From an uncultured bacterium (GTDB lineage Bacteria; Abyssobacteria; SURF-5): a stretch of DNA of 10,047 bases. The notes under the pieces are model-generated. The model worked only from the letters and a program-made list of their open reading frames with translations. It ran no database searches and was not told the origin of the DNA. A program made the translations under genes and the position numbers. The stretch is from assembly GCA_964510165.1 (NCBI GenBank), contig CAZEBC010000149.1, positions 1 through 10,047 on the forward strand, given 5' to 3'. Positions 2,872 to 10,047 of this stretch are shown here, one piece after another. Every line of letters begins with the position of its first letter. The stretch's first letter is position 1.

Positions 2872-2901
2872 TTGACGGTCGCGCAGAGCGGCGAATATAA
2901 T
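2872..2901 (+). promoter_or_regulatory. Sigma70-type promoter for acylase-MFS-MFS
   Basis: TTGACG (2872-2877), 18-nt spacer, TATAAT (2896-2901) in the intergenic region, oriented toward the acylase. Confidence 0.75.
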
Positions 2902-7829: not shown

Positions 7830-8330
7830 TTATTCTATCAAAACGATTTCGGCGCGGGGCCGTTTGCCGGGCTCAAGCGTGAGGATGGCGACGGAGGCGG
7901 GCAGATCGAACATCGGCCGGCTTGCCGAGCCGGGATTGACGGTGAGCATTCCGTTAACGTGCTTGACTTCCGCGCGGTGGGTGTGCCCCCAGACGAACAC
8001 ATCGGGCCGCTTGGGGCCGCAGCGAGCCTTGAATTCGCTGGGGCTTCGGAGCAGCATGCCGCCGTTGTGAGTCATGAAAATGTCGGCGCCCGCCAGTTGA
8101 ACTCTCTGGTCAACCGGATAGCGTTCGGTGACGGGGGGCGTGTCCATGTTGCCGCTGACGGCGACGATGGGCGCGATGGCGCTCAACTGGATTATGACGT
8201 CCGCCGAGCCGATGTCGCCCGCGTGGAGGATTCGCTCGACATGCTTGAACACGTCGAACACCTTCGGGTTCAGGTAATCGTGAGTATCTGATATTACACC
8301 GACCTGCATCTGCATTCGGCGCCTGGTCAC
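7830..8330 (-). CDS. Metallophosphoesterase, YfcE/MJ0936/Vps29 family
   Basis: Motifs SDTH, HAGD, GNMD, GHTH and NPGS in ~160 aa. GTG 8330 overlaps the glyQS stop (GTGA); alternative ATG starts at 8315 and 8309. Confidence 0.92.
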   Translation of the reverse strand: MTRRRMQMQVGVISDTHDYLNPKVFDVFKHVERILHAGDIGSADVIIQLSAIAPIVAVSGNMDTPPVTERYPVDQRVQLAGADIFMTHNGGMLLRSPSEFKARCGPKRPDVFVWGHTHRAEVKHVNGMLTVNPGSASRPMFDLPASVAILTLEPGKRPRAEIVLIE

Positions 8331-9652
8331 TCGGCAGTGCGTTTTAGTAGTTCGTCCTTGAGCGCGGAAATCTTCAGCCGCACTTGCTGCATCGAATCCC
8401 GTTCGCGAAGGGTGACGGTCTCATCCTGAAGTGTTTGCGAGTCCACGGTAATTCCGAAGGGGGTGCCTGCTTCGTCCTGTCTGCGGTAACGGCGCCCGAC
8501 GGAACCACCGTCGTCGTAGAAAACCTTCAAGTGCGGCCTCAGTTCGTCAGCTATCTTTCTCGCAATCTCCGGCATGCCGTCTCGGTTGACGAGGGGGAGC
8601 ACCGCCGCTTTGATGGGGGCGATTCTTGGTGAGAGCCTCAGCACCTTGCGCTCTTCCTTCGCACCGGGGTTCTCGACCTCGTAGGCGTCAATGAGGCACG
8701 TGAGCAGCGTGCGGTCAACGCCCGCCGACGTCTCGATTATATACGGGATATACCTCTGGTTGAGTTCCTGGTCGAAGTAGGTGAGGTCCTTGCCGGAATA
8801 CTCCTGATGGCGCGAGAGGTCGAAATCGGTTCGGTTGTGAATGCCCTCGAGTTCTTTCCAGCCGAACGGGAACTCATATTCGATATCGAACGCCTTGCGC
8901 GCGTAATGCGCCAGTTCTGCGGGGCTGTGTTCGTGGAAGCGCAGCCGTTCCTTCTTGACGCCGAGGTCCAGATACCACTGCATCCGCTGTCCCTTCCAGT
9001 ACTCGAACCACTCGTCATCGGCGCCGGGTCGGACGAAGTATTGCATCTCCATCTGCTCGAACTCGCGCATGCGGAACACGAAGTTGCCGGGCGTGATCTC
9101 GTTTCGGAAGGCTTTCCCGATCTGGGCGATGCCGAACGGTATCTTTTGACGTGAAGGGCCAAGCACGTTCTGGAAATTCACGTAGATGCCTTGGGCCGTC
9201 TCGGGCCGCAGGTATACCACGGCGGCCTCTTCCTCAACTGGCCCGATGAACGTCTTGAACATCAGGTTGAACTGGCGCGGGTCGGTGAGCTCGCCGCCGC
9301 AGTCGGGACAGACCTTATCCTCCACTTCGTCGGCGCGGAAGCGGTGCTTGCACTGCTTGCAATCGACCAGCGGGTCGTGAAATCCGGCCACGTGGCCCGA
9401 CGCTTCCCACACGCGCGGATGCATGATGATGCTGGCGTCGAGCCCTTCGACGTCCTCGCGCAGTTGCGTCATGGTCTTCCACCAGAACCGCTTGATGTTG
9501 TTCTTCAGCTCGACCCCGAGTGGGCCGTAATCCCAGCAACTTGTGATGCCGCCGTAGATGAGGCTGCTCTGAAAGATAAAGCCGCGTCTGCGACACAGCG
9601 AGACCAGTTCTTCCATTCTCTTGTCGGCCTCGGTAATCTTCTTCTTGGCCAT
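8327..9652 (-). CDS. glyQS: Glycine--tRNA ligase, homodimeric alpha2 type
   Basis: 'RRGF...IYGG...WDYGPLGVELKNN', 'YLRPETAQG', motif 2 'GKAFRNEITP...FRMREFEQME', 'ELEGIHNRTDFDL', 'IETSAGVDR', anticodon domain 'GRRYRRQDEAGTP'; CxxC...CxxC in the insertion domain. Start at ATG 9652 (GGAAGGCGG upstream, 441 aa) is preferred over 9730. Confidence 0.97.
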   Translation of the reverse strand: MAKKKITEADKRMEELVSLCRRRGFIFQSSLIYGGITSCWDYGPLGVELKNNIKRFWWKTMTQLREDVEGLDASIIMHPRVWEASGHVAGFHDPLVDCKQCKHRFRADEVEDKVCPDCGGELTDPRQFNLMFKTFIGPVEEEAAVVYLRPETAQGIYVNFQNVLGPSRQKIPFGIAQIGKAFRNEITPGNFVFRMREFEQMEMQYFVRPGADDEWFEYWKGQRMQWYLDLGVKKERLRFHEHSPAELAHYARKAFDIEYEFPFGWKELEGIHNRTDFDLSRHQEYSGKDLTYFDQELNQRYIPYIIETSAGVDRTLLTCLIDAYEVENPGAKEERKVLRLSPRIAPIKAAVLPLVNRDGMPEIARKIADELRPHLKVFYDDGGSVGRRYRRQDEAGTPFGITVDSQTLQDETVTLRERDSMQQVRLKISALKDELLKRTAE

Positions 9653-9728
9653 ATACTGTAAACCGCCTTCCCTGCCCAAGTTCAGGTTGTCCAAATCAGA
9701 AATATTTGAGGGGAATCTTCCGCGTCTC

Positions 9729-9774
9729 AATAAAAAGCCCTTCTCGCCGAAAGTTCGGTTTCGGCGAAAAGGGC
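9729..9774 (-). terminator. Intrinsic terminator inside the glyQS 5' leader
   Basis: Minus strand GCCCTTTTCGCCGAAA-ccgaac-TTTCGGCGAGAAGGGC-TTTTTATT: 16-bp stem followed by a U tract. Its one imperfect pair is G-U on the minus strand but C-A on the plus strand. Confidence 0.9.
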
Positions 9775-9830
9775 GAACCTGCCCGCGGATTCACCCCATC
9801 GGCCTGGCTCGCGCCAAACCGCTCATAATC
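9729..9830 (-). promoter_or_regulatory. Candidate transcription attenuator/leader RNA of glyQS
   Basis: Between promoter and terminator: hairpin CGGUUUGGC-GCGA-GCCAGGCCG (9821-9800) and antiterminator GGGGUGAAUC (9797-9788) pairing with GGUUCGCCCU (9779-9770), which overlaps the terminator 5' arm. Confidence 0.6.
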
Positions 9831-9835
9831 AACGC

Positions 9836-9865
9836 ATTATATCCCTTGCAGTTACGATATGTCAA
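9836..9865 (-). promoter_or_regulatory. Consensus sigma70 promoter upstream of glyQS (proximal)
   Basis: TTGACA (9865-9860), 18-nt spacer, TATAAT (9841-9836). Both hexamers are perfect. Predicted TSS about 9830-9829. Confidence 0.85.
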
Positions 9866-9899
9866 ACGCGATCTATGGTTTCCCTTCTTAATAGCGAGA

Positions 9900-9974
9900 G
9901 CGCCTGGCCGGGAGGATGGCTCCTTGCGAAATAGAGGGAGGGACGGAAAGAGTCGCCCTGCGCCGGCCAGGCGC
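9900..9974. repeat. 75-bp element bounded by a perfect 12-bp inverted repeat
   Basis: GCGCCTGGCCGG (9900-9911) and CCGGCCAGGCGC (9963-9974). Confidence 0.75.
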
Positions 9975-9980
9975 AGGCAT

Positions 9981-10009
9981 ATTATGTCATATGCTTGTCC
10001 CAAACACAA
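9981..10009 (-). promoter_or_regulatory. Possible distal sigma70 promoter (extended -10)
   Basis: TTGTGT (10009-10004), 17-nt spacer, CATAAT (9986-9981) preceded by TGn, in a locally AT-rich patch. Confidence 0.35.
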
Positions 10010-10047
10010 GTCAACCCTCGAAATAACCGTTCTCGGACGGCGCCCGC

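Follow-up and report, generated by a model that had tools for sequence, protein, structure and literature searches.

What controls the expression of glyQS in this uncultured bacterium, and is the short leader ahead of the gene one more T-box or a regulatory element of some other kind? glyQS is the classic target of T-box regulation, and in the window (by which we mean the whole 10,047-nt stretch of DNA analysed here) the minus strand carries, one after the other ahead of this gene, a strong promoter, a hairpin, a G-rich word reminiscent of the T-box core and an intrinsic terminator. The original prediction saw in this arrangement either a miniaturised or repurposed T-box remnant or an attenuator of a different class. 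In the present study, both ideas were followed up together with the possibility of an independent small RNA gene.

The gene itself (8327-9652, minus strand; ATG at 9652, stop at 8329-8327) encodes a glyQS-type glycine-tRNA ligase, a single-chain class II enzyme of 441 aa with the Pfam domains tRNA-synt_2b and HGTP_anticodon, and homologues 81-89% identical to it are named glycine--tRNA ligase. As for its start codon, 18 of 21 close homologues begin with M[A/G](N)KK at residue 1, while the other three consist of one with a 15-residue extension and two starting at an internal Met. At its 3' end glyQS overlaps, by positions 8327-8330, the start of a gene for a calcineurin-like metallophosphoesterase (7830-8330, minus strand), with which it is probably co-transcribed.

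We considered and rejected the reading that the terminator ahead of glyQS closes an upstream gene stopping at the UGA at 9791. The minus-strand frame at 9791-10045 lacks the signature of a coding region: its GC3 is 0.56 and its codon log-odds -0.20, whereas the seven real genes give 0.70-0.80 and +0.30 to +0.43, respectively. For the minus-strand ORF at 9794-10045 only two proteins were matched, one of 3791 aa over 19 residues and one of 377 aa in six stretches, and we take both to be low-complexity matches; the plus-strand ORF at 9621-10046 has no homologues among proteins of near length or shorter. Since the upstream frame has neither a coding signature nor homologues, the terminator is not the end of an upstream gene. 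Indeed, no gene on either strand ends there, and the window contains no tRNA gene.

On the glyQS side lies a sigma-70-type promoter at 9836-9865 (minus strand), with TTGACA at 9865-9860 and TATAAT at 9841-9836, matching the consensus at 12 of 12 positions and scoring highest of all promoters in the window. It had been described as perfect, which holds for the two hexamers, whereas the spacer measures 18 nt and not the optimal 17. Judging from promoter spacing, the transcript is predicted to start at about A9829/G9830. A second near-consensus promoter, TTGACG-18-TATAAT (11/12; 2872-2901, plus strand), lies between the genes for dihydroxy-acid dehydratase and penicillin amidase; its spacer is likewise 18 nt, and its presence in another intergenic gap suggests that the organism uses this consensus. 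Nearer to glyQS, 3' of the terminator, there is a promoter-like site TTGAGA-18-AATATT (9701-9730, minus strand) with 9 of 12 matches. Sites of this quality number five in the whole window, against 3.6 expected by chance, so that it gives no evidence of a promoter, and the 12/12 site is the only good promoter predicted upstream of glyQS.

Directly upstream of the consensus promoter, a long hairpin occupies 9900-9974 (minus strand), with some 26 bp in total interrupted by 1x1 mismatches, a perfect GC-rich base of 12 bp (GCGCCUGGCCGG/CCGGCCAGGCGC) and a pyrimidine-rich loop of 15 nt. A weaker promoter-like TTGACT at about 10013 stands ahead of it.

The predicted leader contains a set of mutually exclusive hairpins, P1, X, AT-B and the terminator, and ends in the last of these. 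P1 (9800-9821, minus strand) consists of 9 bp (9821-9813/9808-9800, CGGUUUGGC/GCCAGGCCG) closed by a GCGA tetraloop of the GNRA type at 9812-9809, has an energy of -16.1 kcal/mol and, in folding, is the first structure of the growing transcript; it sits where a T-box would carry Stem III. In the antiterminator hairpin AT-B (9770-9797, minus strand), GGGGUGAAUC at 9797-9788 pairs with GGUUCGCCCU at 9779-9770, giving 10 continuous base pairs around the 8-nt loop CGCGGGCA at -14.3 kcal/mol and taking up the first 5 nt (9774-9770) of the terminator 5' arm. In the growing transcript, AT-B becomes the minimum free energy (MFE) structure once the RNA end has reached 9768, and does so again for ends at 9744-9740. 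The alternative hairpin X (9775-9810, minus strand; GAGCC..CCG.UGGG / UCCG CGG..GGUUC) excludes both P1 and AT-B and belongs to the MFE fold of the complete leader (-50.8 kcal/mol). Because it excludes AT-B and is compatible with the terminator, X is a possible anti-antiterminator.

The intrinsic terminator (9729-9774, minus strand) has a 16-bp stem (9774-9759/9752-9737), 9 of the 16 pairs being G-C, with the 6-nt loop CCGAAC and, after the stem, UUUUUAUU. Its energy is -29.2 kcal/mol, and the U-run TTTTTATT ends about 77 nt before the glyQS ATG at 9652. The window has no second strong terminator-like site, and this one holds the top score of its kind. Everything that the original prediction had placed here on the minus strand, namely the GCGA-tetraloop hairpin, the T-box-like segment and the 16-bp terminator some 77 nt before glyQS, is present. 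The terminator stem (9737-9774) is also nearly palindromic, and its complement scores as a plus-strand hairpin (24.4 bits); as the plus-strand copy has no U-run, termination should occur in one direction only.

How evenly matched are antiterminator and terminator? Co-transcriptional folding passes from P1 to P1 with AT-B, then to P1 with AT-B and the upper terminator, and at last to the full terminator, which replaces AT-B only once the transcript end reaches 9736. P1 with AT-B and the upper terminator (-45.7 kcal/mol) and P1 with the full terminator (-45.3 kcal/mol) are isoenergetic. At the global minimum of -50.8 kcal/mol P1 melts in favour of X, and the terminator state with X is ahead by 5.1 kcal/mol at equilibrium. 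Blocking the terminator base costs a ddG of 5.1 kcal/mol, compared with 9.6 +/- 2.4 kcal/mol in 1000 shuffles, of which 3.7% show an antiterminator competition as close; in other words, the competition is closer than in 96.3% of them. A cruder test, which considers pairing to the terminator 5' arm, was not significant, being equalled by 22% of 1000 shuffles. The folding of the whole leader reaches z = -3.99 against 200 shuffles.

We then come to the T-box question proper. The T-box-like word GGGGUGAAUCCGCG lies at 9784-9797 (minus strand), with a "bulge" UGAAUCC at 9793-9787. According to PMC11404447, the conserved T-box bulge is 5'-UGGNACC-3', in which UGGN pairs with the tRNA NCCA and ACC is highly conserved. 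Two of these six specified positions differ in UGAAUCC, with one change in the GG that pairs with CCA and another in ACC, which agrees with the earlier remark that two bulge positions deviate and that one of them breaks CCA pairing: C74 of UCCA has no partner in UGAA, and UCC stands where ACC is conserved. The core GGGTGGNACCGCG, if up to two mismatches are allowed, occurs twice in the window, against 1.77 occurrences expected. Locally, 177 of 20,000 dinucleotide shuffles of the 56-nt leader reach the 13-nt core at this level of mismatch, a suggestive figure for a motif that was sought only after the attenuator had been seen.

Both pairings that had been drawn for this segment exist; in energy they are very unequal. 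The T-box-like fold, made up of A1 (9797-9794/9772-9769, 4 bp), the 7-nt bulge and A2 (9786-9782/9777-9773, 5 bp), attains -3.6 kcal/mol and is 10.7 kcal/mol weaker than the continuous AT-B helix formed from the same nucleotides. Of the pairs expected at the base of A2, G-U or more rarely G-C, the leader has the latter (G9786-C9773), a variant reported for S. pneumoniae glyQS (PMC11404447); of the T-box features compared, this is the one that the leader displays. The flanks of Stem III are expected to be 5'-RRRxG and AA-3' according to section 12 of PMC7583486; those of P1 are AUGAG, whose second base is a pyrimidine, and AU.

No Stem I, specifier loop, K-turn or AG bulge was recognised, nor does AGUA occur anywhere in 10047-9798. 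Only 32 nt separate the predicted transcription start from the T-box-like word, too few for the predicted transcript to accommodate a Stem I, just as the original prediction had maintained in giving about 30 nt and no Stem I. The hairpin at 9974-9900 was tried as a Stem I and rejected, as it has a near-continuous stem and a pyrimidine loop and is devoid of a specifier-type internal loop or motifs. Separately, GAAGGGA at 9881-9887 (minus strand), upstream of the -35 box, takes the form "GAA + Gly codon + purine" of a specifier loop; situated outside any stem context, it is probably there by chance. Rfam, the scan of which had been called for at the outset, returned no T-box in the whole window at gathering score (Rfam 15), and none at E<=10 either on 9600-10047 or on the 111-nt leader alone (9722-9832). 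The notion of a miniaturised or repurposed T-box remnant thus found no support, given the lack of an Rfam match, the deviation of the bulge at 2 of 6 positions, the missing Stem I and a fold 10.7 kcal/mol weaker than its competitor; judged by its sequence, a recognisable T-box is not supported for this leader.

The closest GlyRS proteins (81-89% identity) stem from metagenomes, and two are named by their source as Candidatus Poribacteria and Candidatus Lindowbacteria. As comparison DNA we used 80 glyS loci among the matches listed, 532 kb in total, whose products share 58-70% aa identity and which belong to other phyla, including Gemmatimonadota, Ignavibacteria, Spirochaetes and Bdellovibrionota. 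The T-box-like word was found in the 0.4 kb before glyS in none of the 80 listed loci, and none of them yielded an Rfam T-box. A leader terminator comparable to ours was likewise absent from all 80, the best hairpins being much weaker and no more than five of them lying within 90 nt of the matched start. In a search with a covariance model built on the leader of the window, 0 of 80 listed loci matched upstream of glyS, the only match (L072, E = 1.6) falling inside the coding region. The element is thus not shared generally across this GlyRS clade, as sampled by listed loci of other lineages at 58-70% identity.

In the same loci, c-di-GMP-I riboswitch aptamers (44-66 bits) were noticed at L003 1672-1751, L013 1026-1101 and L070 922-1010, all on the minus strand in locus coordinates; they are located 0.6-2 kb upstream of glyS and on the opposite strand, in three unrelated loci, two from Gemmatimonadota and one from Bdellovibrionales. 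Among the open-access papers searched, none listed for riboswitches of Poribacteria, non-T-box attenuators of GlyRS genes or T-boxes without Stem I describes an element of the present kind. It seems very improbable to us that the leader is all that remains of a T-box, its discriminator half, in a lineage beyond the phyla known to have T-boxes, either still reading tRNA-Gly without Stem I or founding a new compact class of synthetase attenuators common to Poribacteria/Lindowbacteria-like relatives.

What, then, is the element? Since the competition between antiterminator and terminator is less close in 96% of shuffles, a transcription attenuator other than a T-box is the best reading: the element would be the 5' leader of the glyQS mRNA carrying a conditional intrinsic terminator, an interpretation that we put forward tentatively and with somewhat less than even confidence. 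The "different attenuator class" proposed originally fits the anatomy (a consensus promoter, no comparable promoter after the terminator, and a balanced pair of antiterminator and terminator). Its support from shuffling is weak (3.7% in one test and a non-significant 22% in the other), and the absence of the element from all 80 listed loci and the lead of 5.1 kcal/mol that the terminator state with X has at equilibrium likewise speak against it.

In such an attenuator, transcription would start at the consensus promoter, at about 9829, and P1 would form first. AT-B (9797-9770) would come next and would hold the first five nucleotides of the terminator 5' arm, and the upper 11 bp of the terminator could still form, then 5-6 nt away from the U-run. 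Because P1 with AT-B and the upper terminator equals P1 with the full terminator in energy, read-through into glyQS would depend on a free AT-B 5' arm. As an effector, the sequence offers a single visible candidate, a ribosome on an 11-codon ORF at 9791-9826 (minus strand; AUG AGC GGU UUG GCG CGA GCC AGG CCG AUG GGG UGA = MSGLARARPMG*), whose UGA (9793-9791) lies inside the AT-B 5' arm (9797-9788). A ribosome reaching this UGA would cover the arm, upon which the terminator would form and glyQS would be switched off; a ribosome delayed early in the ORF, e.g., at GGU codon 3 under a shortage of Gly-tRNA, would not occupy the arm, allowing AT-B to form and glyQS to be switched on. The parts, their energies and the order of folding are what the analysis gives directly, and we infer the transcription start, the function of the terminator, the translation of the ORF and the direction of regulation.

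This logic is coherent, but the case for the leader ORF, as far as its sequence goes, is thin. The ORF sits in the longer frame 9791-10045, which lacks a coding signature, and has no Shine-Dalgarno sequence; its AUG, 3-4 nt from the predicted transcription start, does not coincide with the predicted 5' end and has no normal leader ahead of it either. Initiation of the leaderless type is described by PMC9031893 as occurring "at or near" the 5' end, and 10.1101/834739 presents short ORFs in such a position as amino-acid-responsive attenuators of mycobacteria. Gly is encoded by the third and the last sense codons, i.e., by two of 11 residues and no more often than Ala, Arg or Met, so that MSGLARARPMG displays no enrichment of Gly codons and glycine specificity would be poor. 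A further point against the ribosome version is that stalling at the final codon, GGG, would cover the arm and so regulate in the wrong direction. The anatomy is accounted for just as well by a trans-acting protein or RNA on the AT-B arm, or by no regulator at all.

One rival keeps the attenuator and changes what sets it. A trans-acting factor, such as surplus GlyRS or another RNA-binding protein on P1 or on the G-rich arm, might block AT-B and so bring about feedback repression; or there might be no regulator at all, the terminator damping a very strong promoter. Its anatomy and energies would be those set out above, and it would account for an ORF as weak as this one, with no Shine-Dalgarno sequence and only 2 Gly of 11. 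Some synthetase genes are controlled by their own product binding the leader, e.g., E. coli thrS, and autoregulation of this type is thus established in other bacteria. No feature of the sequence points to a particular protein, however, and no mimic of an anticodon loop or an acceptor end was recognised beyond what any GC-rich hairpin offers; we regard this explanation as unlikely. The main rival of the attenuator reading does away with attenuation altogether: an independent sRNA gene of about 100 nt (~9829 to 9730) would act in trans, and glyQS would be transcribed from a weak promoter of its own in the 77-nt gap. An sRNA gene is usually recognised by a strong promoter, some 100 nt of RNA and a strong terminator with a U-tail, all present here; the leader is well structured (z = -3.99), the equilibrium favours the terminator state by 5.1 kcal/mol, and TTGAGA-18-AATATT follows right after the terminator. 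Yet this last site, at 9/12, does not exceed chance (5 vs 3.6 expected per window), and the sRNA reading would deprive glyQS, an essential gene, of any good promoter. Nor does any Rfam sRNA family rise above noise: the best match, RNA-OUT at 23.4 bits, covers the terminator hairpin only, microRNA precursors and CrfA are similar look-alikes of that hairpin, and the other matches (HgcC, and c-di-GMP-I-GGC at 9.3 bits) are weak noise. No homologue was found in the 532 kb of listed glyS loci either, and a competing antiterminator would be purposeless in a plain sRNA. Such a gene is possible in our estimation, though rather unlikely.

A descendant of the T-box keeping only the discriminator half (Stem III as P1, the bulge, A1/A2 and the terminator) is the remaining rival, and we consider it the most improbable of all. 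It might still sense the 3' end of uncharged tRNA-Gly without Stem I, or it might be a fossil in which two substitutions zip the bulge into a constitutive antiterminator. The identity of the gene, a classic T-box target, is in its favour, and so is the succession of hairpin, G-rich word and terminator, which reproduces the order of Stem III, T-box and terminator; the word comes within 2 mismatches of the 13-nt core, a level attained by 177 of 20,000 local shuffles, a 7-nt bulge can be drawn between helices of 4 bp and 5 bp, and the G-C at the base of A2 is a tolerated variant (PMC11404447). As the fossil version predicts, the deviating bases A9791 and U9789 both pair in the continuous helix. 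The discriminator alone is moreover said to be necessary and sufficient for sensing aminoacylation in section 12 of PMC7583486, although the same source reports that transcriptional T-boxes need the long Stem I. Here Stem I is absent, with 32 nt before the word, no specifier-type loop in the upstream hairpin and no AGUA. Rfam is silent on T-boxes at gathering score and at E<=10, even for the leader alone; UGAA/UCCA stays unpaired at C74 with UCC in place of ACC, and the presumed Stem III is flanked by AUGAG and AU in place of RRRxG and AA. The T-box fold falls 10.7 kcal/mol behind AT-B, the word is no commoner than chance window-wide, and 0 of 80 listed glyS loci have a T-box.

Should the leader prove to be a working attenuator, it would offer a first look at the control of an aminoacyl-tRNA synthetase gene in this uncultured lineage, and a switch of about 100 nt would be small enough for complete dissection. 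If the link to T-boxes were true after all, it would illustrate how a tRNA-sensing riboswitch shrinks or decays. As read from its sequence, the element is one instance, unconserved so far among 80 distant listed loci, of a common architecture composed of a promoter, competing hairpins and a terminator, and its value is that of a lead for comparative work, not of a discovery.

Three known systems invite comparison. Like Hfq-type sRNAs, the leader has a strong promoter of its own and measures about 100 nt, with a hairpin at the 5' end, then G-rich single-stranded RNA, and a U-tailed terminator; unlike them, it stands head-to-tail 77 nt before an essential gene lacking a convincing promoter of its own, and it matches no family in Rfam. 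To T-boxes of the glyQS class (RF00230) it is related by its place upstream of a GlyRS gene, by a hairpin followed by a G-rich word like the T-box core, and by an antiterminator that shares nucleotides with an intrinsic terminator. It departs from them in lacking a covariance-model match, Stem I, specifier, K-turn and AG bulge, and in its bulge, which reads UGAAUCC where the T-box has UGGAACC, so that the tRNA CCA end cannot pair fully; furthermore, the nucleotides of its bulge are paired within the leader itself, in a plain hairpin of far greater stability. T-box leaders usually extend over 200-300 nt, whereas ours is about 100 nt long. Candidates shorter than 100 nt or longer than 500 nt were dropped from TBDB, according to PMC7778990.

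With leader-peptide attenuation the picture is again divided. The leader ORF contains no run of regulatory codons (2 Gly of 11) and no Shine-Dalgarno sequence, and P1 is not in direct competition with the antiterminator. The ribosome-mediated attenuators of this class include those of trp, his and pheST of enterobacteria. They also include the mycobacterial attenuators with short 5'-end ORFs (10.1101/834739); the leader AUG, for its part, stands 3-4 nt from its predicted 5' end and not at it. What our leader does share with leader-peptide attenuators is a short putative leader ORF at whose stop codon a terminating ribosome would mask the antiterminator strand, a set of mutually exclusive hairpins (P1/X/AT-B/terminator), and a downstream gene of amino-acid or tRNA-charging metabolism.
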